Positions 3,610 through 62,285 of a stretch of 63,646 nucleotides of DNA are shown piece after piece. This DNA comes from Candidatus Omnitrophota bacterium. GTDB lineage: Bacteria; Omnitrophota; Gorgyraeia; Gygaellales; Profunditerraquicolaceae. Below the pieces are notes generated by a model, which was given only the letters and a program-made list of their open reading frames with translations, was not told the origin of the DNA and did no database searches. The stretch lies in assembly GCA_028715785.1 (NCBI GenBank), contig JAQURC010000008.1:1-63646 (forward strand), written 5' to 3'. Positions within the stretch are counted from its first letter, which is position 1; each line of letters begins with the position of its first letter. Position numbers and translations under genes: made by a program.

Positions 3610-4911
3610 ATGTGTTATGCCATACCGGGAAAAGTAGAAAAAATAGAGAATAACACGGTCACCGTGGATTATTTCGGCGAGAAAAGGAAAGCCCATAATG
3701 AGCTCTCCAGAATCGCTATCGGCGATTATATCTACGCGCAGGGCGGGTTTGTGGTCAGCAAGATTTCTCCCTCTGAGGCCCAAACCATTCTCTCTGTGTG
3801 GAAAGAAACATTTTTCCAATTGCAGGAGGTGGATTTAAAGCTTTCCCGCCTGCAGCTTAACGATAAAAATACGGATAAGAAATTATTTGGAATATTGGAT
3901 AAGGCCAGCCAGTCAAGAGAGCTCAGCCGCCAGGAGTTGCTGAGCCTGCTGGAGTTAAAAGATAAGCCTAAGATAGAGTTATTTTTTAAAACAGCAAATT
4001 TCCTGCGCCAGAAATACCATAAAAATTCCTGCTGTGTCCACGGGATAATCGAGATATCCAATTATTGTTGCCGGGGCTGCCAGTATTGCGGGATATCTTA
4101 TCATAATAAAAAGTTAAAGCGCTATCGTATGGCTAAAGATGAGATTTTACAGGCGGCCAAAGAGGCGGTTGAGGTTTATGGATTTAAATCTTTGGTTTTG
4201 CAAAGCGGAGAGGATCCCGGATACAGCATTGAGGAGTTAACGGATATCGTTAAGCAGATTAAGGAGAAATTCCCCGCGCTGATTTTTATAAGTTTTGGCG
4301 AGATCGGGGTGGAGGGTTTAGAAAAACTTTATCAGGCAGGAGCCCGCGGCCTGCTGATGCGTTTTGAAACTTCTAATCCTCAACTTTATCAGAAAGTACA
4401 TCCGGAGATGAGTTTAGAGAACCGGCTGCTGCATTTACGCAAGGCCTACGCTATGGGTTATTTAATTCTTACCGGAGGATTGATTGGATTACCCGGGCAG
4501 AGCAGTGAAGATATTTTAAACGACTTGTTTCTGGCTAAAGAATTGCGCGCGGAGATGTATAGTTTCGGCCCTTTTATCCCGCATCCGGCCACGCCTTTCT
4601 CGAATCACAAACCCGTGCCGGCAGAAGAAGTGATTAAGGTCTTGGCCCTGGCCAGAATTATGGGCGACAATAATGCCAAGATCCTGGTAACTAGCGCTCT
4701 GGAAACTTTAAGCAGGGAGGCGGCAAAAAACAGCCTGCTTGCCGGAGCAAATTCGCTGATGCTTAATGTTACTCCGTTATCCTATCGGCCGTTTTACTCT
4801 ATTTATCCGGACAGAGCGCATCAATCCGAGGATATTTCCGCGCAGATTGAATCCACAGTTTCCTTATTGCGTTCTTTAGGCCGGGCACCGACGGATCTGG
4901 AGGCAGTGTAA
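3610..4911 (+). CDS. hydE: HypC/HupF-like domain fused to [FeFe]-hydrogenase radical SAM maturase HydE
   Basis: Residues 1-75 (MCYAIPGKVEKI...GDYIYAQGGFVVSKISPSEAQ) carry the HypC signature. The rest matches HydE: ISNYCCRGCQYCGISYHNKKLKRYRM, VLQSGEDP, RFETSNP, GLPGQ, FGPFIPHP. It is a single uninterrupted ORF. Confidence 0.85.
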   Translation: MCYAIPGKVEKIENNTVTVDYFGEKRKAHNELSRIAIGDYIYAQGGFVVSKISPSEAQTILSVWKETFFQLQEVDLKLSRLQLNDKNTDKKLFGILDKASQSRELSRQELLSLLELKDKPKIELFFKTANFLRQKYHKNSCCVHGIIEISNYCCRGCQYCGISYHNKKLKRYRMAKDEILQAAKEAVEVYGFKSLVLQSGEDPGYSIEELTDIVKQIKEKFPALIFISFGEIGVEGLEKLYQAGARGLLMRFETSNPQLYQKVHPEMSLENRLLHLRKAYAMGYLILTGGLIGLPGQSSEDILNDLFLAKELRAEMYSFGPFIPHPATPFSNHKPVPAEEVIKVLALARIMGDNNAKILVTSALETLSREAAKNSLLAGANSLMLNVTPLSYRPFYSIYPDRAHQSEDISAQIESTVSLLRSLGRAPTDLEAV

Positions 4912-5001
4912 CAGTTCAGCTCTCAGAAGAGCCCCGTCGTAGGGCAGGTTTAAACCTGCCCTACAGTCCCGTCGAAGCACTTTCAAGGGCTGAACTGTTA
5001 C
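4908..5001 (+). repeat. family C palindromic element (outer 13-bp stem, inner GTAG...CTAC 26-mer), complete copy
   Basis: The outer arms GTAACAGTTCAGC and GCTGAACTGTTAC are perfect complements. The inner palindrome GTAGGGCAGGTTTAAACCTGCCCTAC lies at 4939-4964. The element overlaps the hydE stop codon. Confidence 0.9.
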
Positions 5002-10591: not shown

Positions 10592-10680
10592 AAGGGGGAC
10601 GGTTCTATTTTTTATCCACAGAGTAGCTGACGTTTAAACGTCAGCTACAAAGTACAGAAGAATAGAACCGTCCCCTTTTT
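10592..10680 (+). repeat. REP-1 nested palindromic element, copy 1
   Basis: The outer stem is AAGGGGGACGGTTCTATT / AATAGAACCGTCCCCTT. Its loop carries TATCCACAGAGTAGCTGACGTTTAAACGTCAGCTACAAAGTACAGAA, and a T-run follows. Confidence 0.9.
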
Positions 10681-10722
10681 ATTTAGTTGCAGGAGTAGTT
10701 TTTTGGTTGTAAAATAGTTATT

Positions 10723-12642
10723 GTGGACAATGAAAAGATACTAGAAGATTTTTTTCGCAGCCTCAAAGTCGCCCTCACCAACGCTTTTTCTTATTCCAAA
10801 GACCACCCTTACTTTATTAAATCCGTTGAGAATTTTAAGGTTAAACTTGAAGATATCCTTGTTGTTTTAAACCCGCTTAAAATCGGAGTAACCAGCACCG
10901 CTATTCTGGTTGACGGGAAAAGTTTGGCCAAAAGCGGCTTCTATGATGAATTAGCCCGCCTGTTACACCAGCGTAAAATCAAAAACGTCGAAATCAGCAG
11001 CGGTGCCAGCCTCCAGGAATTGGTCCAGTTTCTTTCCGTAATCTCCCTGCCGCAAAAAGATATTTTTAAAGGCGGCGGGATCAATGCCATCCTTAAGGAT
11101 AAACAACTTGCCCATGTTACAATCGGGGAGCTGGATTACTCTGTTTTTTTGCAGGGCCAGGGCCAGGAATGCGCCGACATCTGGGGGTTTATGCTTAAAG
11201 AGGCAACCCATAGCAATGACCCGGCAAAATTAGAGGCGCTTGCCGATAATTTCGGCCCGCTGATCAAGCGCAGCAGCGAAAAAGATATCCTTGAAACCGA
11301 AGATCTCCCTTCCGATATCAATGAGTTCCTGGTTTGTTTAAGGGGAAAGAACAAGGAAAAATTCGATAAATGCTCAAAGGATCTTTTCTTATGGCTTTTG
11401 CGCAATAAAAGATCCCTTAACGAAGAAAAAATGGCAAAGCTGGGGCCCGTCTTTGATAGTTTGAACCAGGAGGATTTTAGCGCCCTTCTCTGGGAGGGCA
11501 TTTCGCAGGAAGATAATTTTGATGATTTGAGTTTACAGCTTTTTTCCAAAATCTCCGAGCAGAAAAATCCTTCTAAGATTGCCGAAGGGTTCCTGGCCAA
11601 GGTAAATGAATCGCAGTATTTAAAAAATAATCCCAAGGCGGTAAAGAGGGTCCAGAATTTATTAACCGCAGGCCATGATGACCGGGTCTCCGCCGTATAC
11701 CGCAATACGCTGGAATCTTTAGTGAAAGGGATTTCTTCTTCCGGAGGATTATTTTTTGATCAGCGGCGGCTTCGAGAAAATTACCGTTATATAGTTTTAG
11801 GCCTGCTTTCTATTGACGGAGACCGGGATAACCTGAAATTGGCGGCGGAAATTCTAGAGAAGGAGTTGGCCGGGATATTTGAGGATAATGACCTTGATTT
11901 TTTAAAGAGTTTTTTCAGCCTGTCGAGGGAAAGAAAAAATCAGGGTTCTGACGTATACGTTGATCTTGAAAAAAAGTTTTCCGCATTTATCGAAAACATT
12001 GCGTTAAATCAACCCCTGGCCCCGGGACAGGAATTTCTTCTGGAGATGGTTTCTTCTCCCGCCCATGAAGTTAGTTATTACCTGGATAAAATATTTGCTT
12101 CTGAGAAGGCCGGTGGGCAGGTTGTGAGTTTATTCCTCAGGTTGTTCCCGGAGCAAATAGATGTTTTTTACCAGCGCCTGGAGCAGAAGCTTCAGGACAT
12201 GGAGTTTCTTGCCGGTTTAATCGGCACTTTAGGCCGGCTTGGCGGGCCTAAAGTCCTGGAGGTTTTAGAATATATTTATTCTTCAGCCAATGAATTGATC
12301 AAGATTGAGGTGCTTGCGGCCATGGCTAAATTGAGAAAGGTCGATGCTGACTTTTTGACACGCCACTTAAGCGCGGATTCCTTTTTGCTTAGAAAGAGCC
12401 TGTTTTCTGTTTTGATGTTGGATGCGCAGGCAAGGGAAAAAGCATTGGACCTGTTGTTTAATATCCCCAGCTTTTTTGGGAAAAATAACGATCTGCTTAT
12501 TGAGAATATGCAGATTATTTATGATTCGAGGTCCGTTGAGGCAGCCGGCAGGATCCGCGATTTGGCCGGCAAGAAATTTTTTTGGAATAAAAAATTGCGC
12601 GATAAGGCAAAACAGATTTTAAAGGAGTGGGATGCTCTCTAA
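10723..12642 (+). CDS. hypothetical 639-aa protein; its N-terminus is paralogous to that of the downstream HD-GYP protein and its C-terminus looks HEAT-like
   Basis: Long clean ORF with a GTG start. The first ~135 aa align by eye with the N-terminus of the next ORF. I recognise no catalytic motif. Confidence 0.7.
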   Translation: MDNEKILEDFFRSLKVALTNAFSYSKDHPYFIKSVENFKVKLEDILVVLNPLKIGVTSTAILVDGKSLAKSGFYDELARLLHQRKIKNVEISSGASLQELVQFLSVISLPQKDIFKGGGINAILKDKQLAHVTIGELDYSVFLQGQGQECADIWGFMLKEATHSNDPAKLEALADNFGPLIKRSSEKDILETEDLPSDINEFLVCLRGKNKEKFDKCSKDLFLWLLRNKRSLNEEKMAKLGPVFDSLNQEDFSALLWEGISQEDNFDDLSLQLFSKISEQKNPSKIAEGFLAKVNESQYLKNNPKAVKRVQNLLTAGHDDRVSAVYRNTLESLVKGISSSGGLFFDQRRLRENYRYIVLGLLSIDGDRDNLKLAAEILEKELAGIFEDNDLDFLKSFFSLSRERKNQGSDVYVDLEKKFSAFIENIALNQPLAPGQEFLLEMVSSPAHEVSYYLDKIFASEKAGGQVVSLFLRLFPEQIDVFYQRLEQKLQDMEFLAGLIGTLGRLGGPKVLEVLEYIYSSANELIKIEVLAAMAKLRKVDADFLTRHLSADSFLLRKSLFSVLMLDAQAREKALDLLFNIPSFFGKNNDLLIENMQIIYDSRSVEAAGRIRDLAGKKFFWNKKLRDKAKQILKEWDAL

Positions 12643-13963
12643 CGTTGAGGCGGCTTTTAAAGGCTTACTTACCTGTCTTCAGGCCTATAAGATGTACGGT
12701 CTAAGGCACCCTATGTTTACCAGGTCTCTGGATAGCGCGCATGCTTCTTTTGAGGACGTCCTGGCAGAGCGCCAGGAGATGGTTATCGGAATCGTTGGAG
12801 AGGATTTGGCTTTTGAAAAGGAGATCTTTTTTGACCTGAGTAAATTTTTGCGCCCGGCGATCTTGTATTTAAAAGAAAGAAATATCGAGAGGTTTGCTTT
12901 TTTACATGGGTTAAGTAAAGATGAGCTGGGTATATTTATCGAATTTATTGCCCGGCCTAAAGAAGATTTTAAAGGGGATATCCAGGAGATGCTCAATCTT
13001 GCCGGTATCGAGCATATTAATATAGGCAAGCTTAAGGTCGCAGACGGCAAAGATAAGGCCGGTTCCGGCCCGGATCAGCGCGGCCTTTATGATTCTTCCG
13101 CGGATAAGATTAATCAGGCTTTAAGCGGAGTGCTTAATTTTGAAAAGATCGACCATCTTACGCTTAAGCTTTCCATGAGCAATATTATGGAAAGCTTAAG
13201 CACTAAGCGCCAGGAGCTGCTTAAACTGGCTACGCTAAAAAGATATGATATGGAGACTTATATCCACATGCTTAATGTCTCTATCCTTTCCATGTATTTT
13301 TCTTCGCGCCTGGGTTTTGACAAGAGCGATGTTTTAAATATCGGCGTTGCCGCTATGTTTCATGATATCGGCAAGCTGTTCATTTCGCGAAAATTATTGC
13401 ATAAACCCGATAAGCTTACGGACCAGGAGTTTGGGCGTATCCGCAGCCACACAATTATGGGCGCAGAGATAATGCTTAAATATGTAGATACCTTAGGTAT
13501 CTTGCCTGTGGTCGTCAGCTTTGAGCATCATTTAAAGTATAATTCATCCGGTTACCCCCGGATGCCCTTATTAAGAAAACAGCATCTTGCCTCTTTGATT
13601 GTTTCTATCTGCGATGTCTATGATGCCCTTTCCCAAAGGAGGGGCTATAAACAGGATTATTCTCCCGACGTGGTTTATAATATAATGAACAAAGAGAAGG
13701 GGACTTCTTTTGATCAGGAGTTGCTGGATAAATTTTTTCGATTTATGGGCCTCTGGCCGGTTGGTTCGATCGTGGCATTAAATGACGGGAGTATTGCATT
13801 AGTCAAAGATGAAAATGAATCCGATATCCGGCGGCCAAAACTTGAGATAATCTCTCCCGTTGATAAAAAACGCAGCGTGGACCTTGCTCAGGATAACAGC
13901 CTGAGCATTGAGCATTATCTCAATCCCTGGAAGGAAGGCAAGGAGTATCTGCGTTTAGTTTGA
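12632..13963 (+). CDS. HD-GYP domain protein (probable c-di-GMP phosphodiesterase)
   Basis: Contains HDIGK and HHLKYNSSGYPR motifs. It overlaps the upstream ORF by 11 nt. Confidence 0.85.
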   Translation: MLSNVEAAFKGLLTCLQAYKMYGLRHPMFTRSLDSAHASFEDVLAERQEMVIGIVGEDLAFEKEIFFDLSKFLRPAILYLKERNIERFAFLHGLSKDELGIFIEFIARPKEDFKGDIQEMLNLAGIEHINIGKLKVADGKDKAGSGPDQRGLYDSSADKINQALSGVLNFEKIDHLTLKLSMSNIMESLSTKRQELLKLATLKRYDMETYIHMLNVSILSMYFSSRLGFDKSDVLNIGVAAMFHDIGKLFISRKLLHKPDKLTDQEFGRIRSHTIMGAEIMLKYVDTLGILPVVVSFEHHLKYNSSGYPRMPLLRKQHLASLIVSICDVYDALSQRRGYKQDYSPDVVYNIMNKEKGTSFDQELLDKFFRFMGLWPVGSIVALNDGSIALVKDENESDIRRPKLEIISPVDKKRSVDLAQDNSLSIEHYLNPWKEGKEYLRLV

Positions 13964-13983
13964 TTTCCGTCTTTTGCTTCCGG

Positions 13984-14158
13984 CACAGTTGCGGGTCCTG
14001 CCGAACCTTGTCTCTCACCGCACCGCTTGCTCGCCCCAGCGTGGCGAGCTGCGCTTCGGCAAAAATTCTCGCTCTGCCAAGACATTTAGTGCGGGCAACC
14101 CTGCCCGCTCGAATTTTTGAGATGCTGTTCGAGTCCAAGGTTCGTCACCCGCTAATGG
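13984..14158 (+). repeat. family B structured repeat (~170 nt), copy 1
   Basis: It aligns by eye with the reverse complement of 62116-62285. Shared blocks include CTCGCTCTGCC, CATTTA, GGGCA..CTGCCCGCTCG and CCGCTA. Confidence 0.8.
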
Positions 14159-14167
14159 TTTAATAAA

Positions 14168-14382
14168 ATGCCTCTGGTGGTTTTCGCAGCGAATGTCGAT
14201 TTTAGCCAATGGAGCTTGAGTATTCCGGGTATCCCGGTGGAGCGAAGCGACAACACCGGGATGGCGAGGATGTTTGACTGGTATTTGCCATAGAGCAAAT
14301 ACCAGGAGTTCCGCAGCCACCGGAATACGAAAGACCATTGGCGTTAAAAAATCGACCTGAGCGAGAAAACTAACAGAGGCAT
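14168..14382 (-). repeat. family A structured repeat (~215 nt, long branched hairpin), copy 1
   Basis: Terminal arms ATGCCTCTG and CAGAGGCAT pair. The interior aligns with the reverse complement of 50485-50704 and carries compensatory stem changes. Confidence 0.9.
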
Positions 14383-14384
14383 AT

Positions 14385-14419
14385 GCAGCGCACGGCGAAA
14401 AATTTTAGCGCAGGTTGTC
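14385..14419 (+). repeat. half copy of the 30686-30852 long hairpin element
   Basis: GCAGCGCACGGCGAAAAATTTTAGCGCAGGTTGTC resembles the right arm GCACACATTTGCCGAAAAATTTC...CCGCAGGTTATC. Confidence 0.6.
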
Positions 14420-14439
14420 AGATGAGTTTTAAAAATAGT

Positions 14440-14468
14440 TTGACATTCTTAGACGTTTTTGTTATAGT
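14440..14468 (+). promoter_or_regulatory. sigma70-like promoter upstream of pyrG
   Basis: TTGACA, a 17-nt spacer, then TATAGT. Confidence 0.6.
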
Positions 14469-14478
14469 TAATAAAACA

Positions 14479-14518
14479 AAGGCGTTTAGGGGCCGAAATA
14501 GTCGGCACTAAACGCCTT
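14479..14518 (+). promoter_or_regulatory. pyrG 5' leader hairpin
   Basis: AAGGCGTTTAG / CTAAACGCCTT form an 11-bp perfect stem enclosing GCCGA/TCGGC. The hairpin ends 13 nt before the ATG. Confidence 0.6.
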
Positions 14519-14531
14519 CTTCACGTAAATT

Positions 14532-16166
14532 ATGGCTAAATTCATCTTTATAACCGGCGGTGTGATCTCAAGCTTAGGCAAAGGCATAGCTTCTGCTTCT
14601 ATCGGTAAGATCCTGGAATCCCGCGGCCTCAAAGTCACATTAATGAAGCTGGATCCTTATATCAATGTCGATCCGGGGACGATGAATCCCTATCAGCACG
14701 GAGAGGTTTATGTTACTGATGATGGCGCAGAAACCGATTTAGACCTGGGCCATTATGAGAGATTCACAAAAGCGGTGATGACCAAGTTTAATAATGCTAC
14801 TACCGGCCAGGTTTATAATACGGTAATTTCACGTGAGCGCCGGGGGGATTATTTAGGTAAAACCATCCAGGTTATCCCCCATATTACAGGTGAAATAAAG
14901 GACAGGATCAAAAAAGTTGCCCAAGTCAGCCAGGCAGATATTGTTTTGATCGAGGTCGGCGGGACCGTCGGGGATATTGAAAGCCTCCCTTTTTTAGAAG
15001 CAGCGCGGCAGTTTGAATTAGATGCCGGAGAAAAAAATGTCCTCTATATCCACCTTACTTTGGTTCCTTACATAAAGGTCGCCGATGAAATCAAGACTAA
15101 GCCTACCCAGCATAGCGTGCAGACTTTACGCCAAATCGGCATCCAGCCGGATATTTTAATCTGCCGCACGGAAAAAACACTTTCCGATGATGTCAAAGAA
15201 AAAATATCCTTATTCTGCAATGTGAGGAAGGAAGCGGTGATTGAGTCTTTAGACGTGGAATCGATTTATCAGGTCCCGTTGGTTTTTAAGGGCCAGATCC
15301 TTGATGAAATAATCTTAAGCCATTTTGGCCTGATCTCCAAGCCGTCCGATTTAAAGGATTGGGAGAAGAATGTAGTCGAGCGCCTGTTTTCCCCCAAGAG
15401 GACGGTTCAGGTGGCCGTGGTGGGTAAATATATCGGTTTACAGGACGCCTATAAATCTATCTACGAAGCAATTATCCACGGCGGTATCAATAACCAGGTG
15501 AAGGTAGAGATCAAAAAGGTTGATTCTGAAGATATTGAGAAGCATGGGGCCCAAAAGCTGCTGGATGGAGTGGATGCAATTTTAGTTCCCGGAGGGTTTG
15601 GGTGCAGGGGAATTGAAGGCAAGATTAAAGCCATTGGTTTTGCGCGAAAAAATAAAATTCCTTTCTTAGGGATCTGCCTGGGGATGCAGTGCGCGGTAAT
15701 GGATTTTGCGCGCGCTATCTGCGGGTTAAAAGATGCCAATTCCACCGAATTCAAACCCAAGGCCAAGAATCCCGTAATTAATCTTTTAAGCGAGCAAAAA
15801 AATATTAAAGATATGGGCGGCACGATGCGCCTGGGCGCCTATCCCTGTAAAATAAAAAAGAATACTTTAGCCGCCAGGGTTTATCAGAAAAGCCTTATTT
15901 TTGAGCGGCATCGCCACAGGTATGAATTTAATAACAAATTCCGTAAAAGATTAGAATGCAGAGGAGTGGTTTTTTCCGGAATTTATCAGAAGAAAAATTT
16001 GGTTGAGATCGTGGAATTGAAAAACCATCCGTATTTTATTGCCGTGCAATTTCACCCCGAATTTAAATCCAAACCCGATGCGGCGCACCCGTTGTTCAGG
16101 GAGTTTATCCGCGCTGCGATAGAGAAAAATAAATATGCAGGCACTTCTTGTCTTAGAGGACGGTAA
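14532..16166 (+). CDS. pyrG: CTP synthase
   Basis: Begins [18 protein letters not shown] and has GICLGMQ in the glutaminase domain. Confidence 0.95.
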
Positions 16167-23438: not shown

Positions 23439-23520
23439 AGGGGACGCTCTATTTTTTATCCACAGAGCAGCTGACGTTTAAACGTCAGCTACAAAGTACA
23501 GAAAAATAGGAATAGTCCCT
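23437..23520 (+). repeat. REP-1 element, copy 2 (degenerate outer stem), between the convergent M48 peptidase and lpxB genes
   Basis: It has the same inner sequence, with GCAG in place of GTAG. The right end overlaps the lpxB stop codon by 2 nt. Confidence 0.85.
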
Positions 23521-24709
23521 AGTTTTTCTGCAGGAATTCAAGGATTAGCTTGGCTGCGCGCCCTGCCGCGCCAGGTTGACCCAGGGAATCTTTTACTGCT
23601 TTTAGATCCTGGCTCATGCGGTTGGCAGAGAGAGGATCTTGTAGAAGTTCGATCATTGATTTGGAAATTATTTTAGGCCGGGCGCCAAACTGGATAAACT
23701 CCGGAACGATTTTTCTTCCCGCCACGATATTGACCATGCCGATATAGGGGATTTTTATTTGCGGCCGGTAAAGCAGGTAGTTTAAGATATTAGTTTTGTA
23801 TACGATTACAAAAGGCTTCTGCATAATTGCCGCTTCCAAGGTGGCGGTCCCGGAGCAGACGATGCTTGCCTGGGCGATATTCAGGCAATCGTAAGTCAAG
23901 CCGTCAATAATTTTGAAGTCCAAATTGAATTTTTTACATTCATCCCAATATAGCTGTTGATCTAAATTCGGGGCTTTAGCGATAATAAATTGCGCCTGCG
24001 GGATTGCCTTATTGATCAGGGCTGCCGCCTTAAGCATTAAAGGCAGGATTATTTTTATTTCTTGTTTCCGTGATCCGGGGAGCAGGGCAATAATTTTTTT
24101 GGACGGGTCAATCCGGAAATTATTTGCAAATTCCTGTTTTTCTAGAGCAGGTTTTACCAGGTCTATTAATGGATGTCCAACGCAGGCTGCCTGGATTCCC
24201 CGCTGTTTGTAAAACTCTTCTTCAAATTTAAAAAGCACAACCATCATCGAGATAAATTTTTTTATGCAATTTATCCTGCTTTCCCTTGAGGCCCAAAGCT
24301 GCGGGCTGACATAATAAATAACCGGTATGCGTTTATTGATGGTTCGACCTTGCTCACCATCAATCCTGAGCGTAGTCGAAGGATTGACCGCTTTGGCCAG
24401 GCGCAGGTTAAAACCGGAAAAATCGACCAGGATTACGGCATCCGGTTTATCGGCATCGATTTTGCTTAAAATTATTTTTTTTAACTCAAAGAATTTCGGC
24501 AGTTTCTTTAAGACATCGAATAACCCCATGACCGCAAGCCCTTGGATATCGTAGAAAATTTCGCATCCGGCTTTGGCTAAACGCGCTCCTCCTGCGCCGG
24601 ATATTTTTATATCCGGTTCAAGATTTTTAATTGCGCCGACCAGGTTTGCGGCCAAAAGGTCGCCGGAAGGCTCGCCGCAAACAATAAATATTTTTTTTAT
24701 CTGTGCCAT
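23519..24709 (-). CDS. lpxB: lipid-A-disaccharide synthase
   Basis: Contains IFIVCGEPSGD and YYVSPQLWASR, and aligns along its full length with the LpxB architecture. Confidence 0.9.
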   Translation of the reverse strand: MAQIKKIFIVCGEPSGDLLAANLVGAIKNLEPDIKISGAGGARLAKAGCEIFYDIQGLAVMGLFDVLKKLPKFFELKKIILSKIDADKPDAVILVDFSGFNLRLAKAVNPSTTLRIDGEQGRTINKRIPVIYYVSPQLWASRESRINCIKKFISMMVVLFKFEEEFYKQRGIQAACVGHPLIDLVKPALEKQEFANNFRIDPSKKIIALLPGSRKQEIKIILPLMLKAAALINKAIPQAQFIIAKAPNLDQQLYWDECKKFNLDFKIIDGLTYDCLNIAQASIVCSGTATLEAAIMQKPFVIVYKTNILNYLLYRPQIKIPYIGMVNIVAGRKIVPEFIQFGARPKIISKSMIELLQDPLSANRMSQDLKAVKDSLGQPGAAGRAAKLILEFLQKN

Positions 24710-25797: not shown

Positions 25798-25882
25798 AAA
25801 GGGGACGGTTCTATTTTTCTGTACTTTGTAGCTGACGTTTAAACGTCAGCTACTCTGTGGATAAAAAATAGAACTGTCCCCT
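25798..25882 (-). repeat. REP-1 element, copy 3 (inverted orientation)
   Basis: AAAGGGGACGGTTCTATTTTTCTGTACTTTGTAGCTGACGTTTAAACGTCAGCTACTCTGTGGATAAAAAATAGAACTGTCCCCT is the reverse complement of the copy 1/4 arrangement. Confidence 0.9.
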
Positions 25883-25915
25883 GATTTTCGCCCTATTTTT
25901 ATCTAATAAAAAGGT

Positions 25916-30675: not shown

Positions 30676-30685
30676 TGAATAATTT

Positions 30686-30852
30686 GATAACCTGCGGTAT
30701 TGTTCGCGTGCGAAATTTTTCGCCGTGTGCTGCGGTTTACGACTCACTCTCGGACTGACTTACGCTGTAAGAATGTCCTCCGTTCGTCGTAATTCCTTGC
30801 ACACATTTGCCGAAAAATTTCTAATGCACGCTCCACAATACCGCAGGTTATC
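30686..30852. repeat. 167-nt long imperfect hairpin element between tRNA-Lys and tRNA-Leu
   Basis: It has 18-bp perfect terminal arms GATAACCTGCGGTATTGT and ACAATACCGCAGGTTATC. Inner pairs are GCGAAATTTTTCGCC/GCCGAAAAATTTC, TTACGAC/GTCGTAA, GGAC/GTCC and CTTAC/GTAAG. Confidence 0.85.
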
Positions 30853-30886
30853 GAAGCTATTTGTAGGTGGGAAGAGGAAAATATCC

Positions 30887-30979: not shown

Positions 30980-31012
30980 GCACCCCGCGCTTATAAGGTA
31001 TTGCGCGGGTGC
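30980..31012 (+). repeat. family D repeat, copy 2 (first hairpin only), between tRNA-Leu and tRNA-Gly
   Basis: GCACCCCGCGCTTATAAGGTATTGCGCGGGTGC is identical to the copy 1 hairpin. Confidence 0.9.
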
Positions 31013-31022
31013 GCGTTCGTAC

Positions 31023-31096
<74 letters not shown>

Positions 31097-36916: not shown

Positions 36917-36970
36917 ACACCCCGCGCTTATAAGGAATTGCGCGGGTGTGCCCCTGTGGGCAAGAGAGGA
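36917..36970 (+). repeat. family D repeat, copy 3, between metK and ahcY
   Basis: Sequence ACACCCCGCGCTTATAAGGAATTGCGCGGGTGTGCCCCTGTGGGCAAGAGAGGA. It ends in the ahcY Shine-Dalgarno. Confidence 0.9.
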
Positions 36971-40645: not shown

Positions 40646-40680
40646 GGGGACGGTTCTCTTTTTAAGAGAGAACCGTCCCC
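40646..40680. repeat. simple GGGGACGGTTCTC hairpin (the REP-1 outer stem without the insert)
   Basis: GGGGACGGTTCTCTTTTTAAGAGAGAACCGTCCCC is a perfect 14-bp stem after the fba stop. There is no T-run, so its terminator function is uncertain. Confidence 0.8.
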
Positions 40681-48682: not shown

Positions 48683-50488
48683 ATGCCTGAATTAAACCTT
48701 TCCGATTATCTCTCTAAGAGCATATCCAAAGATAGTTGGAAGAATGCCGGTTTTAAAAAGCGCGCCGGAGTTTTGATCCCGTTATTCAGCGTGTATTCGA
48801 AAGATAGTTTTGGTATCGGGGACCTGAATGACTTAAAGCTTGTTGTCGATTGGGCAAAGTTGACCTCTAATTCAATTGTCCAGTTGCTGCCGATGAACGA
48901 AGTCGGAGCGTTGTTTTGCCCTTATGATGCCTTGAGTTCTTTCGCGCTTGAGCCCGCCTATATTTCTCTAAAAGATTTCCGTAAATTAAAAGATAAAAAA
49001 TTTAATCAAGTTTCAGACGACCCCGGCCATATTGATTACGCGGTAAAGGAAGAAAAGTTGCGGCTGCTCTGGGATGTTTATTTGGCGCAGGACTTAAGCC
49101 AGGCGTTGGATTTTGAAGAATTCCAGCGCAAAAATTTTTACTGGTTGGCGGATTTTGCGCTTTTTAAAGTGCTCAAAGAGCATCATCAGGGCAAGCCCTG
49201 GTATGAGTGGGAGCAGGGTTTTAAATACCGCCAGCCGGAGGCGTTAGAAGAATTCCGGCAGGATAATATCGAGAAAATAACTTTTCAGATGTGGCTGCAA
49301 TGGATCCTTTTTAAGCAGTTTAAATCCTCCAGCGCCTATGCCGCCGGGAATAATATTCTTATCAAAGGCGATTTACCGGTTTTGGTTTCCCGGGACAGCG
49401 CGGATGTCTGGAGCCATTTGGAATTTTTCAAGCTGGATTTTGCCGCAGGCGCGCCTGCGGATATGTATGCTGCCCGGGGCCAGCGCTGGGGGATGCCTAC
49501 TTATAATTGGGAAAATATCGCCAAAGACGGTTACCGTTATATCAAAGAAAAATTAAAATACGCCGCAGAGTTCTATAATATCCTGCGCATTGACCATGTC
49601 GTCGGGCTTTTCCGTATCTGGAGCATTCCTTATCATGCCCCCGAGGCCAATCAGGGGTTAAACGGCGTTTTTGATCCGCTTGATGAGCATCTTTGGAACC
49701 AGCATGGCCGCAAGATTCTAAGTATTTTAATTGAAAATACCAGGATGCTGCTTTGCGCGGAGGATTTAGGCGTAATTCCCAAATGCTGCACGGATACGTT
49801 GCTGGAATTCGGAATACCCGGAAATGATGTGCAGCGCTGGGTAAAAGATTGGAATATCCGTCATGATTTTCTCCTGCCGCAGGAGTACCGGCAGCTGGCA
49901 GTGGCGATGCTTTCGACGCATGATACCACTAATTGGAAGGCCTGGTGGCAGTATGAGGCAGGCACGGTTGATGAGGCTTTGTTTAGGCGCAAGTGCAATG
50001 ACCACAAAATTGATTTTACCAAAGTCAGCTTGAAACTTTTTGATCCGGGCCTTTCCCTGCATGGGCGCCTGCGCTGGAAGAAAGAGATTTATACTATAGA
50101 TAAACTGCTTTGGGAGCTGGGTAAACATAAGGAAGAGGTAAAGGATCTTATCGATCTTTACGAAAATACCTATGGAGAGAAAGAAAAACTTTGGAAGATA
50201 CTGGGCTGTTCCGGCGCGATGACCGAGGCTGCCAGCGACGACCTGTTGGCTAAAATAATCCAGTTTATCTTAAACTCCCGGGCAATTTTCTGTATTAATT
50301 CAATACGTGATTATTTGAGTTTAGCCGGAATATTTAAAGGCGATCCCTATCAGTATCGGGTAAATGTTCCGGGGACAATCAGCCCGAAAAACTGGTCGCT
50401 TAGGCTTCCGCTTAGCCTTGAGGAGTTGCTGGCTCATCCGCTGAATAAACAGATCCGCAAGATGATTTCTGATTCCGGGAGAATTTAA
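48683..50488 (+). CDS. malQ: 4-alpha-glucanotransferase (GH77 amylomaltase)
   Basis: Contains RAGVLIPLFSV...FGIGD, RIDHVVGLFRIW and AEDLG. Confidence 0.85.
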   Translation: MPELNLSDYLSKSISKDSWKNAGFKKRAGVLIPLFSVYSKDSFGIGDLNDLKLVVDWAKLTSNSIVQLLPMNEVGALFCPYDALSSFALEPAYISLKDFRKLKDKKFNQVSDDPGHIDYAVKEEKLRLLWDVYLAQDLSQALDFEEFQRKNFYWLADFALFKVLKEHHQGKPWYEWEQGFKYRQPEALEEFRQDNIEKITFQMWLQWILFKQFKSSSAYAAGNNILIKGDLPVLVSRDSADVWSHLEFFKLDFAAGAPADMYAARGQRWGMPTYNWENIAKDGYRYIKEKLKYAAEFYNILRIDHVVGLFRIWSIPYHAPEANQGLNGVFDPLDEHLWNQHGRKILSILIENTRMLLCAEDLGVIPKCCTDTLLEFGIPGNDVQRWVKDWNIRHDFLLPQEYRQLAVAMLSTHDTTNWKAWWQYEAGTVDEALFRRKCNDHKIDFTKVSLKLFDPGLSLHGRLRWKKEIYTIDKLLWELGKHKEEVKDLIDLYENTYGEKEKLWKILGCSGAMTEAASDDLLAKIIQFILNSRAIFCINSIRDYLSLAGIFKGDPYQYRVNVPGTISPKNWSLRLPLSLEELLAHPLNKQIRKMISDSGRI

Positions 50489-50704
50489 CAAATACGTAAT
50501 TTTTCTCGCTCAAGCCGATTTTTTAACGCCAATGATCTTTCGCATTTCGGTGGCTGCAGAACTCGCGGTTTTTGTTTTAACAAAAACCGCTCAAACAGCT
50601 TCGCCATCTCCGTTTTGTCGCTAGCGCTCCACGGAGATTCCCTCAATGCTCAAGCTCCATTGGCTAAAATCGGCATTCGCTGCGAAAAACTACGTATTTG
50701 TTAA
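50485..50704 (+). repeat. family A structured repeat, copy 2
   Basis: Terminal arms TTAACAAATACGTA and TACGTATTTGTTAA pair. Internal hairpins are GCGGTTTTTGT..ACAAAAACCGC and ATCTCCGT..ACGGAGAT. The left arm overlaps the malQ stop codon. Confidence 0.9.
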
Positions 50705-50719
50705 CTACTAAGAAAATAC

Positions 50720-51610
50720 ATGGGAACATTGCAAGGGGTAAAATATTATATTTCTAAAAGCATGGGCAAGGCGATCATGGATTACCAGATGATTGCTGAG
50801 GGCGATAAAATCGCGGTTGCTGTTTCCGGCGGCAAGGACAGCCTGACCCTGCTTAAGTTCCTAAAGGACAGGCAGAAATTCGTGCCGGTTAAATATGAAC
50901 TCTTGGCGGTCCACGTGGATATGGGGTATCCCTGCCATCACCCGAAAATCCTCGGCGAATATTTCAAAAAGATCGGGGTAGAATATCATATCGAGAAAAT
51001 AGATATATTAAAGGGCAAGAGCCGCAAGGATATATCCTGCGGCGTAGAGCATAGGAAGGATTCTTTTCCGCCACAGGAAGGGGGTGCGGGGGAGATTGTC
51101 TCCCGCGATCGGGGGGTGCTCAGCGAACGGAGTGAGCGCCGAAGGGGGGCTTGCCCCCCTAGCGGAAGAAATTTGGCAGTTACTCTTGATCCGCGAAGCC
51201 AAATTTCTTGTTTCTGGTGCTCCTGGAACCGGCGCAAGGCGCTTTTTGAGGTGACCAAACGTTTTGCCTGCACCAAGCTTGCTTTGGGCCACCATAAGGA
51301 TGATATTATCGAGACTACCCTGATGAATATGTTTTTTAACGGCGAGATCTCGTCAATGAACCCCAGGCAGGAGCTTTTTAAGGGGGCAATAACCATTATT
51401 CGTCCGCTGGCTTATGTGGATGAGGATCTAATCGTAAAGTCGGCCAAGGAGCTGGAGTTTCCGCATCATAAATGCACTTGTCCGAATTCCGTTACTTCCA
51501 AACGTACCAGGATCACCGAAATGATCAAAGAGTTGAAAAAGGATTGCCCGGATATAAAGACCAATATTTTTAGAAGCATAAAGAGGATAAGGCCGGAGTA
51601 TTTACTTTAA
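50720..51610 (+). CDS. ttcA: TtcA-like PP-loop tRNA 2-thiolation ATPase carrying a ~57-aa in-frame insertion inside its CxxC motif
   Basis: Contains the VAVSGGKDS PP-loop, LALGHHKDD and a third Cys region HHKCTCPN. The expected C-x-x-C is read as ISC[57 aa]...ISCFWC. Confidence 0.75.
   Translation: MGTLQGVKYYISKSMGKAIMDYQMIAEGDKIAVAVSGGKDSLTLLKFLKDRQKFVPVKYELLAVHVDMGYPCHHPKILGEYFKKIGVEYHIEKIDILKGKSRKDISCGVEHRKDSFPPQEGGAGEIVSRDRGVLSERSERRRGACPPSGRNLAVTLDPRSQISCFWCSWNRRKALFEVTKRFACTKLALGHHKDDIIETTLMNMFFNGEISSMNPRQELFKGAITIIRPLAYVDEDLIVKSAKELEFPHHKCTCPNSVTSKRTRITEMIKELKKDCPDIKTNIFRSIKRIRPEYLL
51041..51211 (+). repeat. structured GC-rich element inserted in frame in ttcA
   Basis: Hairpins GCGGGGGAGAttgTCTCCCGC, GGTGCTCA..TGAGCGCC, GGGGGGCttGCCCCCC and AAATTTGGC..GCCAAATTT. 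It is flanked by ATATCCTGC and ATTTCTTGT, both of which encode Ile-Ser-Cys. Confidence 0.8.
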
Positions 51611-60838: not shown

Positions 60839-60922
60839 AAGGGGACGGTTCTATTTTTTATCCACAGAGTAGCTGACGTTTAAACGTCAGCTACAAAGTA
60901 CAGAAAAATATAACCGTCCCCT
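60839..60922 (+). repeat. REP-1 element, copy 4, between the convergent ferredoxin and SurA-like genes
   Basis: It is near-identical to copy 1 and is followed by GTTTTTT. It probably also acts as a bidirectional terminator. Confidence 0.9.
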
Positions 60923-60927
60923 GTTTT

Positions 60928-62049
60928 TTATTGCGCCTTTTTAATCAACTCTTCAGTAAACTTACCAAAAACTTCGTTTTTATTTTCCGAGATTAATTTT
61001 TGGCTAAATTCCTGTTTTTCCTTAGCGAATTTAGCTTCATCGATAGGCTTGATTGCATCCAGCTTGATAATATAATAGCCTTTTTCGTTAGAAAGTATAC
61101 TGCTTAGCTCTTTATCTTTTAGCTTTTTGGCGGTATTCCAGAAAATTTCCGCAGCGCCTAAGTTTTCAACCTGGCCGCTGGATTTGAAGAAGGCGGTTTG
61201 TCCGGTTTTTAATCCGCTGGATTTGGCCGCTCGAACAAATTCCTCATTTTTTAATATTTCTGCGCATTCCTTTATTTTATCCTCCGCCATTTTTTTAGTT
61301 TTTTCTTTAATCAAGGCGTTTTTAACCTTGTCCTTAATCTCGGTTAAATCCGGGATACGCGCCGGTTTATCTTTAACAGGAGGTTCTTTAAACATAGCTT
61401 TATTCTTGCCAAAGAAAGAAGCGATTTCTTCATCGGTGGGCTTGATTTTTGCGGCAAAATCGGAAAATAAACTGGCAATATAATGAATATTTAATTCCTG
61501 GTTGGCTTGCGTGTATTTTTGGCGGATCTGCTCATCGCTTAGCCGCACATCTTTAGTTACCTGCTCGTAAAGTTTAGCCAGGGTCAAACTCTGGCGCATC
61601 TGTTCCTCAAAAATGCGCGGCTGCAGCCTGAAGACATAGCGCAGGGTTTGGACATAGGCTTTATTATTAAAGCCGTTTTTGTCCTGAAAATAAGCGGCGC
61701 TCTGGATTGTGTTGATAACTTCTTTGTCGCTTATGTTGATTTTACGCCTTTTTGCTTCATGCAAAAGGATCAACCTTTGCCAGGCTTGCGCCTCTAAGTT
61801 TAAGTATTTCTCAATCTCCGGGAGTTTATCCCCGAATTGCATAGTGGCCGATGTCCTTACGGCTGAAAGGGATTCTTTAAACTCAAGATTTGAGACATTA
61901 TGGCCGAATATCCTCCCGACAGCGGCAGTTTCTTCCTTACTGCGGAATGCCCCCCCGAATCCCCAGAGAGCAAAGGCAGGGATGATGATTATGGCTAAAC
62001 CAATCCAGACTTTTTTCGCGGTTTTCTTATTGCGTAAAATTTTTAACAT
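60928..62049 (-). CDS. SurA N-terminal domain / PpiD-like periplasmic chaperone (signal-anchored)
   Basis: Has an N-terminal TM segment (VWIGLAIIIIPAFALWGF) and a lysine-rich helical body typical of PpiD/SurA-N proteins. No clear PPIase motif is visible. Confidence 0.65.
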   Translation of the reverse strand: MLKILRNKKTAKKVWIGLAIIIIPAFALWGFGGAFRSKEETAAVGRIFGHNVSNLEFKESLSAVRTSATMQFGDKLPEIEKYLNLEAQAWQRLILLHEAKRRKINISDKEVINTIQSAAYFQDKNGFNNKAYVQTLRYVFRLQPRIFEEQMRQSLTLAKLYEQVTKDVRLSDEQIRQKYTQANQELNIHYIASLFSDFAAKIKPTDEEIASFFGKNKAMFKEPPVKDKPARIPDLTEIKDKVKNALIKEKTKKMAEDKIKECAEILKNEEFVRAAKSSGLKTGQTAFFKSSGQVENLGAAEIFWNTAKKLKDKELSSILSNEKGYYIIKLDAIKPIDEAKFAKEKQEFSQKLISENKNEVFGKFTEELIKKAQ

Positions 62050-62115: not shown

Positions 62116-62285
62116 TTCTAGCGGATGGCTTGGCTTGATTTCGAGCAGGGCGTTTGCAGGCCGAGCGGGCACGGCTGCCCACAATAAATGCTCCGGCAGA
62201 GCGAGGCCGAAACCCGAGCGCAGTTTGCCGCGCAGGGGCAAACAAGCGTCCCTGCGAGAAAACAAGGCAAGGCAGACGCGCAGAG
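62116..62285 (-). repeat. family B structured repeat, copy 2
   Basis: See copy 1. Internal hairpins are GGGCAcggcTGCCC and GTTTGCCgcgcaggGGCAAAC. Confidence 0.8.

Follow-up and report, generated by a model that had tools for sequence, protein, structure and literature searches.

Among the bacterial repeats that form hairpins, the REPs (about 35 nt) and the REPINs (about 100 nt) are simple G+C-rich hairpins; their copies number in the tens to hundreds, and they are associated with a RAYT gene that itself lies between REPs. The enterobacterial repetitive intergenic consensus (ERIC/IRU), about 127 bp in length, also forms a simple hairpin. It is said to be an imperfect palindrome over the whole element and to be conserved across genera, with variants reportedly carrying internal insertions or deletions at fixed sites. 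ERIC elements are extragenic, lie near the 3' ends of genes in either orientation and have been proposed to act at the RNA level; an influence on mRNA decay has been reported for them and for comparable repeats located at the 3' ends of genes, and ERIC-type elements possess terminal inverted repeats (TIRs) and a TA duplication (PMC3184786). The Bacillus cereus group harbors bcr1, a dispersed chromosomal repeat of the 150-250 nt class with a length of about 155 bp (Delihas 2011, PMC3184786). bcr1 is reported to be transcribed, compensatory changes maintain its branched, 'cruciform-like' RNA with two stem-loops, and its genomic distribution is not conserved between relatives (PMC3184786).

The window analyzed here, a DNA stretch of 63,646 nt from a Candidatus Omnitrophota bacterium, contains two copies of an element (family A) that a first-pass annotation had described as two segments of ~215 nt, each the reverse complement of the other. 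Both segments were present as stated: pairwise alignment revealed 85% identity over ~220 nt with paired differences, the identical blocks that had been quoted were confirmed, and a repeat search of the window recovered the copies as inverted pairs. Three conserved blocks occurred exactly twice each in the window versus 0-0.1 times in shuffles. The location of the element was right but not its ends, as it is slightly longer according to covariance model R1.

14164-14386, + strand: family A copy A, full element by covariance model R1; the folded (sense) strand is +
50484-50705, - strand: family A copy B by covariance model R1; the folded strand is -
14440-14468, + strand: promoter-like site TTGACA-17-TATAGT for pyrG, downstream of copy A and outside the element

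With this model, copy A scored 237.4 bits on the + strand versus 42.9 on the - strand (nhmmer match 14165-14383), and copy B 235.0 bits on the - strand versus 31.7 on the + strand. The RNA fold of copy A reached -109.4 kcal/mol (z-score -12.4) on the + strand and -100.0 kcal/mol on the opposite strand; the single-sequence fold of the - strand of copy B gave a z-score of -10.1. The flanking genes are all on the + strand, and the folded strand is sense in copy A and antisense in copy B, in agreement with the opposite orientations claimed. All stem pairs in which the copies had been said to differ by paired changes were correct, including those of P3, P6, P7 and P9, and the swap of the terminal stem (ATGCCTCTG/CAGAGGCAT versus AACAAATACGTA/TACGTATTTGTT, both complementary) was verified. 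Copy B occupies the spacer between a GH77 gene, whose stop codon (50486-50488) lies inside the terminal stem, and ttcA (start 50720), as assigned by ORFs and Pfam. The start of copy A is overlapped by a weak promoter match (TCGTCA-16-TAAAAT). As a separate observation, ttcA carries a 57-aa insertion without counterpart in the other DNA compared.

The wider homology search that had been proposed led to at least 230 copies of family A in uncultivated Omnitrophota. An exact 19-mer used for the genome scan, which lies within 14205-14228 (5' strands of P4-P6), was found in 108 stretches; these come from 58 species-representative assemblies, almost exclusively of Candidatus Omnitrophota. An independent three-way-junction pattern detected at least 120 metagenome contigs with 84 unique full copies, 62 of which retain the 19-mer. 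Phage, plasmid and IMG/VR viral collections yielded no family A match. The element is about 215-250 nt long, with individual copies ranging from 205 to 254 nt, and there are one to six copies per assembly.

The folded strand forms a near-continuous rod of ~60 bp (P1-P6), in which small bulges and conserved sheared G·A tandems form interruptions; a perfect three-way junction (P7; P8 to P9) caps the rod. In copy A the following parts were assigned:

14168-14176, + strand: 5' strand of P1, AUGCCUCUG, partner 14374-14382
14178-14203, + strand: 5' strands of P1b/P2/P3, UGG-UUUUCGC-AGCGAAUG-UCGAUUUU, partner 14348-14372, with two tandem G·A/A·G sites
14205-14228, + strand: 5' strands of P4 (GCCAAUG), P5 (CUU) and P6 (GU-AUUCCGG), with a tandem G·A at 14218-14219
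14232-14261, + strand: P7, a hairpin of the three-way junction, UCCCGGU...ACCGGGA with the tip GAGCGAAGCGACAA, 7/7 pairs compensatory
14262-14319, + strand: P8, UGGC[GA]GG / CC[GCA]GCCA, enclosing P9 and the junction UGUUUGA...GGAGUU with a tandem G·A
14278-14305, + strand: P9 hairpin, 11/11 pairs compensatory
14320-14342, + strand: 3' strands of P6/P5/P4, CCGGAAUAC-GAAAG-AC-CAUUGGC
14348-14372, + strand: 3' strands of P3/P2/P1b, AAAAUCGA-CCUGAGCGAG-AAAA-CUA
14374-14382, + strand: 3' strand of P1, CAGAGGCAU, partner 14168-14176

Throughout the family, P1 corresponds to AAUGnnnCUG/CAGnnnCAUU with compensatory changes in 10/10 pairs; the nnn positions covary, and the termini are wholly replaced in copy B, L016, L024 and others. 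The G·A sites of P1b/P2/P3 are kept in 40-60 of 62 copies, while some copies have Watson-Crick pairs in place of G·A tandems. P4 and P5 covary among copies without the exact 19-mer, and the tip of P7 is often a GNRA loop in other copies. P8 was overlooked by RNAalifold and defined by hand, showing compensatory changes in seven of its eight pairs.

The claim that selection acts on the structure rather than on the sequence is strongly supported. Compensatory changes were detected in 37/57 pairs of the RNAalifold structure and in 55/75 pairs of the curated structure (62 copies). In the latter, 89.8% of the pair cells are paired, compared to 37-46% in slid controls, and the covariation value of 0.332 lies beyond all controls (0.06-0.08 in slid controls; reached by none of 500 shuffles). 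With 60-180 further copies added, pairing was far beyond chance. Copies at the same locus in different species revealed 245 changed pairs, of which 100 were double compensatory and 41 wobble. In seven of eight such same-locus comparisons, family A is better conserved than the comparable 3' flank (for example 92.2 vs 84.2%, 88.9 vs 82.1% and 79.7 vs 66.2% identity), and the copies are 78-92% identical where adjacent coding DNA reaches 66-85% (7/8 pairs). The exception is L012/L070, whose flanks are better conserved than the element. Same-locus copies are generally conserved to a degree equal to or above that of neighboring protein-coding DNA, and the fold of family A is held by purifying selection across many species. 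The conservation of the retrieval blocks is partly by construction because copies were retrieved by exact patterns. Moreover, hairpin modules, P9 among them, turn up in mosaic arrangements in the copies, so that gene conversion or hairpin-templated repair could yield part of the compensatory signal without selection at the RNA level.

The data clearly single out one strand of family A as the folded one. In 175 of 180 copies, the minimum free energy of the sense strand is below that of its complement (mean -105.4 vs -92.3 kcal/mol), and with DNA parameters the sense strand is more stable in 178 of 180. Each of five tandem G·A sites is retained in 34-62 of 62 copies. There are 126 G·U versus 77 A·C (~122 versus 46 after removal of three mis-registered columns), and 59 GNRA tetraloops are found on the sense strand versus two on the antisense strand. 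Loops of the GNRA type and sheared G·A tandems are characteristic of RNA. By generic standards for structured RNAs, the family shows both covariation beyond controls and strand-specific features (G·U, GNRA, non-canonical motifs). The opposite strand likewise folds well (mean ~-92 kcal/mol), the rod being a long inverted repeat as in palindromic repeats acting at the DNA level. No -10-like hexamer was positionally enriched at a fixed distance upstream of A or of the neighboring module U described below, the sole recurrent upstream hexamer being the 5' UAAAAU of family A itself, and no canonical terminator follows the element. A promoter in the 3' end of U (TCGAAA...GCTAAn) was considered but is unsupported, since the U-A spacer ranges from 10 to 55 nt.

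Of 174 copies, 120 have the folded strand antisense to the surrounding genes and 41 have it sense, a ratio of ~3:1. GC skew and gene orientation are correlated with r = 0.92, which makes replication-strand bias and gene-direction bias inseparable here. Family A lies directly at stop codons (about -18 to +20 nt) and often spans the entire spacer from stop to next start, as copy B does, so that a separate promoter would hardly fit in. Certain genes precede it repeatedly (amidohydrolase 11 times, SPFH 9+2, RuvB 6), both orientations are found at one and the same gene end, and a short run of U comes after the terminal stem in either orientation. Probably, family A sits in a few permissive A/T-rich spots at gene ends, often beside two other repeats, U and V; the window contains two copies of U and a V-like fragment.

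13992-14155 (nhmmer match on the + strand, better-folding strand -): module U, a second conserved repeat, 10 nt upstream of copy A
62119-62279 (nhmmer match on the - strand): stand-alone module U, 70 nt upstream of a - strand gene
14391-14411, + strand: inverted V-like fragment (third repeat type), CACGGCGAAAAATTTTAGCGC, just 3' of copy A

The reverse strand of U is more stable in 58 of 59 copies, and 48 of 65 scored U copies adjoin A in the same order and orientation as in the window. Sequences similar to the V-like fragment occur 3' of A at several other loci, and L113 has a full V after the GH77 stop. The 3' end of U and the 5' end of A exactly bound a hypervariable one-gene slot, which holds variable single ORFan genes.

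The first-pass annotation had offered two options, an RNA family or a MITE- or REP-like mobile element. The RNA option is supported by the G·A, G·U and GNRA features and by the stability of the sense strand; mobility is supported only in part. The orthologous GH77-ttcA spacer is empty in L109 (19 nt) and L115 (16 nt), one MAG contains two 100% identical copies whose flanks are unrelated and which both follow a diverged U at a distance of 12-13 nt, some copies are truncated or have internal deletions, and the copy number varies. By contrast, the defining properties of the models named were not recovered, as target-site duplications, TIRs, an IS200/IS605-type motif and a recurrent transposase or RAYT were absent. 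In 113 copies with canonical ends, direct flanking 2-, 3- and 4-mers occurred nine times, once and once, respectively, and inspection of the ends copy by copy likewise revealed no target-site duplication. Inverted 2-, 3- and 4-mers were found 29, 13 and 9 times in the same copies, which implies that the flanks merely extend the stem; the A/T-rich palindromic flank context (TA/TTAA) is indistinguishable from such an extension. Neither flank has a conserved target motif beyond A/T richness, and no TIR is conserved beyond AAUG...CAUU. None of 234 nhmmer matches contained an ORF between the arms. No transposase-like protein was detected among the 30 most recurrent neighboring clusters, 20 of which were inspected and are all housekeeping.

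The statement that the element matches no known RNA class was supported by Rfam 15, which at the gathering threshold detected only three tRNAs in the whole window. E-value scans of 14100-14450 and 13800-14540 gave only chance matches (≤18 bits), eight other family A loci had no consistent match, and a limited full-text literature search found no paper linking Omnitrophota to such an RNA motif. Several described classes were compared individually. A classical (DDE) MITE would agree with the insertion polymorphism and the dispersed copies but not with the absence of target-site duplications, parent-IS TIRs and transposase. IS200/IS605 PATEs and REPINs do not fit either, since there is no target motif and one branched fold of 220 nt instead of two end hairpins; no Y1- or RAYT-like gene is among the recurrent neighbors, as would be expected for a PATE or a REP/RAYT system. 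The consensus ends AAAUGAAUCUGG...CAGAUUCAUUU are, by inspection, devoid of the R-box cores of integron attC sites, and the copies are single, dispersed and 205-254 nt long. Retron msr-msd loci have an adjacent reverse transcriptase and a1/a2 closing repeats with a branching G; family A has a closing stem but no reverse-transcriptase-like neighbor gene. Type I toxin-antitoxin repeats comprise a conserved small hydrophobic ORF plus an antisense RNA, whereas the 5' AUG frames of family A differ by inspection in length and phase between copies. In addition, the region from the AUG to the 19-mer carries indels of lengths not divisible by three, and the triplet following the AUG covaries with the 3' end. 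6S RNA is a rod with a large central bubble, usually present in one or two copies. Family A has no large bubble; tandem G·A pairs close its largest loops, a three-way junction forms its apex, up to six copies occur per assembly, and the Rfam 6S models gave no match. The G·A junction could not be fitted to a canonical K-turn by hand, and omega and bridge RNA readings were rejected or left as resemblance only.

Judged from its sequence, family A has roughly an even chance of being a previously undescribed family of structured-RNA repeats, nearly all of them in Candidatus Omnitrophota. A structured non-coding RNA would be its most likely product because the rod and three-way junction of one strand have been kept intact by evolution. 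The selected molecule would be an RNA read from the folded strand, with its ends clamped by P1 and with the G·A motifs and the junction serving as a platform for protein binding or tertiary structure; such an RNA would amount to a stable structured non-coding module. Its DNA copies may behave as a low-copy dispersed repeat that is duplicated, lost, inverted, truncated and homogenized between copies. This reading has to cope with the lack of an enriched upstream -10-like hexamer and of a canonical terminator, with the little spacer room for a promoter, with a folded strand that is mostly antisense to genes (120/174 vs 41 sense), with an opposite strand that folds well too, and with the mosaic hairpins, by which gene conversion or templated repair may mimic compensation, as well as the L012/L070 exception. 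Alternatively, the folded single strand of the DNA may be the substrate or site of a putative enzyme, either a transposase of the HUH type or a tyrosine recombinase, in analogy to the REPIN/RAYT system, IS200/IS605 ends, integron attC and the CTX-phage attP hairpin, a possibility that we regard as rather unlikely. The structure would then be conserved because the enzyme would read shape, and the orientation bias would arise because copies with the active strand on the often single-stranded template would be excised and lost. The orthologous site that may be occupied or empty, the identical copies in different surroundings, the derivatives with truncations or internal deletions and the missing fixed promoter agree with this reading, as do the greater stability of the sense strand with DNA parameters (178/180) and the one-gene slot exactly between the 3' end of U and the 5' end of A. 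So does the 3:1 preference of the folded strand for the orientation opposite to the genes, and thus probably to replication, which resembles the orientation of chromosomal attC bottom strands; GC skew, however, is inseparable from gene orientation (r = 0.92). The DNA-level reading conflicts with the absence of a target-site duplication, of a target motif at either end, of attC R/L cores (GTTRRRY/RYYYAAC) in the consensus inspected, and of a recombinase or transposase among the 30 most recurrent neighbor clusters (20 inspected, housekeeping). Also, GNRA loops and tandem sheared G·A are typical of RNA, and many copies occupy the same locus across species with coding-like conservation. A further reading, in which A, U and V are folded single-strand recombination sites of an unrecognized integron-like gene-capture system, seems very doubtful. 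The 3' end of U and the 5' end of A would delimit a swap slot and solitary A copies would be scars or landing pads; single accessory genes would be swapped into the slot, always antisense to the folded strand, and the system would be functionally integron-like but use different sites and a different enzyme.

Other than as an independent RNA, family A could act in cis within the transcripts of neighboring genes, with which it would be co-transcribed, as a REP/ERIC-type bidirectional terminator, insulator or mRNA processing or stabilizing hairpin. Its position at stop codons (about -18 to +20 nt), the short U run after the terminal stem in both orientations, the recurrence after the same genes (amidohydrolase 11, SPFH 9+2, RuvB 6) and the reported modulation of mRNA decay by ERIC-like 3'-end repeats (PMC3184786) point in this direction. 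However, in about three quarters of the copies the mRNA would carry the less structured complement without the conserved G·A, G·U and GNRA features, and a branched 220-nt fold with a conserved three-way junction far exceeds the needs of a terminator. In addition, a strong terminator at copy B would silence ttcA, since the copy lies 15 nt before its start within a conserved gene order. A role in cis is decidedly unlikely. The probability is slimmest for a passively decaying MITE, already disfavored, in which compensation would stem from a few structured masters plus quasi-palindrome templated mutation without selection on resident copies. In its favor, family A is a dispersed inverted-repeat element with truncated copies, hairpin variants are shared mosaically among the copies, and both strands fold. 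On the other hand, neither a target-site duplication nor a parent IS was found, non-Watson-Crick G·A tandems and bulges are kept and not 'corrected', same-locus identity is 78-92% vs 66-85% in adjacent coding DNA (7/8 pairs), and 89.8% of the pair cells are still paired in 62 diverged copies.

Omnitrophota are a widespread uncultivated phylum of ultra-small, probably host-dependent bacteria, and to our knowledge almost nothing is known about their RNA biology. Family A provides a 220-nt fold with exceptional comparative support and no Rfam match, and the alignment and covariance model from this analysis are directly usable for annotation. If it is an RNA, it would represent a new class of large non-coding RNA, and a protein partner would be expected from its junction and G·A-rich rod; if the folded DNA acts, a new structure-reading system of mobility or recombination would be at hand. 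Under either reading, conserved structured elements are present in the intergenic regions of candidate-phylum MAGs, where they form mosaics (A, U, V) that mark hotspots of gene turnover.

Several known systems share individual properties with family A. Like attC sites, it has one folded strand that is conserved in structure, with extrahelical or bulged bases and a variable terminal structure, it lies at the stop of the preceding ORF and shortly before the next one with the bottom strand as the folded strand, and it adjoins a slot with variable single ORFan genes; chromosomal attC bottom strands have the same orientation bias. It differs from them by the lack of RYYYAAC/GTTRRRY cores, its length (220 nt vs 57-141 nt for attC), its dispersal among housekeeping genes and not in arrays, the absence of a visible integrase and the highly conserved internal sequence. 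HEARO, the omega RNA of IscB, is similar as an intergenic RNA of 200-350 nt that covaries strongly and is present in several to many copies per genome, in many cases with no protein gene next to it. Guide RNAs of the HEARO kind depend on variable loops or on a variable 5' or 3' end that is free, whereas in family A the ends pair together and every variable segment is double-stranded with compensatory changes; moreover, there is neither an Rfam match nor an IscB/TnpB-like neighbor. With REP/BIME/REPIN elements, family A has in common that it is extragenic, hairpin-forming, strand-specific and long-lived, lacks a target-site duplication and forms mosaics with other motifs, here U and V. Yet it is 220 nt long and branched, occurs in one to six copies and has no RAYT-like gene among its recurrent neighbors.

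ERIC elements are simple hairpins with TIRs and a TA duplication, neither of which is found in family A, and family A is distinguished by its conserved three-way junction and its strong strand asymmetry. bcr1 is flanked by 5-bp direct repeats, which family A lacks. Compared to bcr1, family A is larger, with a G·A-rich rod of 60 bp plus a three-way junction, has no sequence similarity, and occurs in many species of a phylum-level group, with many copies at the same locus. What both have in common is that they are dispersed repeats in which compensatory changes keep a branched structure. By analogy, family A would appear to resemble the 'structured repeat RNAs' (bcr1, ERIC) rather than a classical MITE defined by TIRs and a target-site duplication.

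The branched repeat family A (~215-250 nt) is present twice in the window. The first-pass annotation had reported an inverted pair of structured segments in these places, and a repeat search of the window listed both as inverted pairs I4 and I7; all five stem pairings that the annotation had proposed were correct. Pairwise alignment of 14140-14410 with the reverse complement of 50460-50730 revealed 85% identity with a sharp loss of similarity at either end. Each conserved block is found exactly twice in the window, whereas shuffled sequence contains virtually none. A third copy was not detected by a covariance-model scan of the window. The copies and their spacers are:

14164-14386, plus strand: family A, copy A (covariance model, 237 bits)
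50484-50705, minus strand: family A, copy B (covariance model, 235 bits)
568-nt spacer with copy A: between an HD-domain gene (12632-13963) and pyrG (14532-16166), both on the plus strand
231-nt spacer filled by copy B: between a GH77 4-alpha-glucanotransferase gene and a ttcA-like gene

A good promoter match for pyrG lies downstream of copy A, at 14440-14468. The terminal stem of copy B contains the GH77 stop codon (50486-50488), and the ttcA-like gene starts at 50720. The G+C content of the window is ~46% and its GC skew is positive throughout.

The ttcA-like gene itself (50720-51610) carries a 171-nt in-frame insertion (57 aa) at ~51040-51210, which includes the G+C-rich hairpins GGGGGAGATTGTCTCCC and GGGGGGCTTGCCCCCC and interrupts the conserved motif ...DISC|FWCSW... 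The closest aligned homologue (P0004) lacks these 57 residues, and almost all of the other 119 homologues listed have 239 aa, a length into which the insertion would not fit. No second instance was found in all DNA examined (the window and the collected loci). It could be an in-frame repeat insertion (RPE type) or a small intervening sequence; an artefact of assembly is a third possibility.

In a species-representative genome collection, the 19-mer TTAGCCAATGGAGCTTGAG was matched exactly in 108 stretches. The 58 assemblies concerned, with one to six copies per assembly, are almost all labelled Candidatus Omnitrophota. A second search pattern, comprising the three-way junction sequence only, matched at least 120 metagenome contigs. 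Since 62 of the 84 unique full-length copies among the junction-pattern matches listed contain the exact 19-mer, this block is truly conserved and not merely selected by the search. Family A had no match in IMG/VR, phage and plasmid collections, scans of the window and eight other loci against Rfam 15 gave no family for the element even with permissive thresholds, and a limited literature search found no published account of anything like it. Family A is new. Unrelated to it, an Omnitrophota contig (L053:7431-7510) showed a c-di-GMP-I-UAU riboswitch aptamer match of 60.5 bits, compared to a gathering score of 65.9.

RNAalifold analysis of an alignment of 62 copies (A2) recovered most helices, and 37 of 57 pairs showed compensatory changes. 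Helix P8 was absent from this output and was defined by hand from variants as 5' N-GGC-[GA]-NN with NN-[GCA]-GCC-N; some copies have a fully Watson-Crick P8, e.g. GGCAAAAC/GUUUUGCC. The curated structure comprises nine helices with 75 pairs. The element is closed by the terminal stem P1, and P1b to P6 stack into an almost unbroken rod. Beyond it comes a three-way junction in which neither the P7-P8 nor the P8-P6 step has unpaired bases; from it extend the P7 hairpin, whose tip is variable, and P8, which continues into the P9 hairpin. Scored on A2, the structure is 89.8% paired, compared to 37-46% with partners slid by one to three columns; 55 of the 75 pairs vary on both sides, covariation scores 0.332 versus 0.06-0.08, and none of 500 shuffles attained any of these measures. 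P4 and P5 are invariant in A2 because the search word lies within them; in copies retrieved by other routes they covary (GGCAAUGG/CCAUUGCC, GCCAAAG/CUUUGGC, GCCAAGG/CCUUGGC, CUC/GAG). What look like internal loops in the rod are five sites of tandem G·A/A·G pairs, kept in 34 to 62 of the 62 copies. As some copies have Watson-Crick pairs instead (CC/GG at one site in copy A of the window, UUUGG/CCAAAG in others), these positions lie inside the helix. About 30% of the copies bear an additional hairpin at a single fixed site (GGCG^AAAAUCG), where one copy has a 95-nt insertion.

The sense (folded) strand, plus at copy A and minus at copy B, was the more stable one in 175 of the 180 unique copies under RNA parameters (mean -105.4 versus -92.3 kcal/mol) and in 178 of 180 under DNA parameters. 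On the reverse strands the covariance model gave merely 43 (copy A) and 32 bits (copy B). G·U exceeded A·C by 126 to 77, or by ~122 to 46 in a re-tally without three mis-registered columns. On the opposite strand the G·A tandems would read as C·U mismatches, and GNRA tetraloops (GAGA, GAAA, GUAA, GGAA, GCAA) account for 59 predicted hairpin loops on the sense strand and for two on the complement. Because these strand features are of RNA type, RNA is favoured over folded DNA, and we infer that it is the selected molecule.

The ends of family A usually abut a stop codon (~-18 to +20 nt). Relative to the surrounding genes, the folded strand was antisense in 120 and sense in 41 of 174 copies; by subtraction, ~97 versus 22 of the copies without an adjacent U module are so oriented. 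GC skew and gene direction go together so completely (r = 0.92) that a replication-based and a transcription-based cause are inseparable here. A -10-like hexamer was not enriched at a fixed distance upstream of the element, which is the main weakness of reading it as an independent RNA gene.

Many copies occupy the same gene end across several species, lying after an amidohydrolase gene (11 times), SPFH (nine), RuvB (six), PurM (five) or QueA (four). Fifteen same-locus comparisons yielded 245 differing pair positions, among them 100 pair-keeping double changes and 41 wobble-compatible ones. In seven of eight pairs with a comparable 3' flank, family A was better conserved than the adjacent coding DNA (e.g. 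92.2 versus 84.2%, 88.9 versus 82.1%, 79.7 versus 66.2%); in the remaining pair the relation was reversed. Thus, resident copies are not decaying neutrally, though exchange between copies may add to the signal; hairpin variants reappear among copies in mosaic combinations.

The element also behaves as a repeat. The loci collected from other genomes and metagenomes (L001-L235) include a 5' fragment of 65 nt (L010); L035 and L080 carry 'rod-only' internal deletions, and some copies are paired in tandem or head to head. Both orientations occur after QueA and after SPFH, in different species. Two copies of one MAG (L028:377-601 and L090:1393-1617) share 222 nt at 100% identity, beginning with AAAAUG and stopping at CAUUU, within unrelated flanks. 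The copy B junction differs between relatives that share the gene order A24 peptidase, GH77, TtcA, RmuC:

L109: GH77-ttcA spacer of 19 nt, without the element
L115: 16 nt upstream of ttcA, without the element (short contig, upstream neighbour not identified)
L113: V plus U instead, with V at 1985-2170 after the GH77 stop codon
L114 (another Omnitrophota MAG): a different palindromic element at 3875-4000, GAAACAGTTTCC...GGAAACTGTTTC, repeated

With unrelated repeat types in this spacer (L114), the junction evidently gathers different repeat families by lineage. According to the main rival reading, which we regard as rather unlikely, family A is a folded-DNA substrate of a putative recombinase or transposase. 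Several results speak against a classical transposon. The termini are without sequence conservation, and neither a target-site duplication nor a target motif was found at the ends. None of 234 nhmmer hits was an ORF-bearing version, and there was no transposase-like protein among the 30 most recurrent neighbouring proteins, all 20 inspected being housekeeping proteins.

Two further repeat modules, U and V, accompany family A:

13992-14155 and 62119-62279: module U, beside copy A and solitary, respectively
14391-14411 and 30819-30834: fragments of V, the latter possibly spanning ~30682-30856 between two tRNA genes

U is a conserved structured repeat of ~165 nt (GCGGGUCCUG...CACCCGCUAA) with 59 unique full copies in L001-L235 and no Rfam match. 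It folds better on the reverse strand in 58 of these 59 copies, and 17 of 18 pairs of its consensus are compensatory. In 46 of 114 genome-scan copies, including copy A, U lies 10-55 nt upstream of A in fixed order and orientation; among all loci collected, 48 of 65 scored U copies adjoin A. U is also found by itself, as at 62119-62279. V, a closed rod with the sequence TTTTGCGGTTTCGCTTCCGCGTGCTGAAA...TTCTAATGCACGCTCC...AGCGAAACCGCAAAA, is present whole or fragmentary before or after A in many loci. Six loci (L004:2768-4072, L025:1728-2821, L098:2736-3659, L081:296-1527, L083, L051) harbor a lone accessory or ORFan gene between the 3' end of U and the 5' end of A, antisense to both in five. Among their products are a nucleotidyltransferase and a Schlafen/AlbA_2 protein, along with several that lack a Pfam match. 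In the orthologous loci L004 and L025, which have different genes in this interval, homology ends near the 3' end of U on one side and right at base 1 of A on the other. This suggests a gene-turnover hotspot bounded by the modules, on which an integron-like role, at present speculative, is based.

The window contains other repeats as well:

10595-10683, 23439-23527, 25800-25888, 60841-60929 (partial at 40664 and 53782; related core at 4936 and 7274): ~90-nt family GGGGACGGTTCTATTTTT...GTAGCTGACGTTTAAACGTCAGCTAC...AGAACCGTCCCC, a palindrome centred on GTTTAAAC, in both orientations
146-193, 30980-31027, 36917-36964: three copies of the 48-nt repeat ACACCCCGCGCTTATAAGGTATTGCGCGGGTGTGCC..., one of which lies between a pair of tRNA genes and immediately precedes the one at 31023

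The finding of the first-pass annotation is real and considerably stronger than could be known at that stage. That family A is a structure-constrained RNA carried by a low-copy dispersed repeat has, in our estimation, an even chance of being correct. As a MITE, an IS200/IS605-type element, an attC site, a retron RNA, 6S RNA or a type I TA locus, the element failed the defining tests. It resembles REP/BIME mosaics and is like attC sites in geometry only; in functional terms, bcr1 and ERIC, both structured repeat RNAs, come closest to it (PMC3184786).
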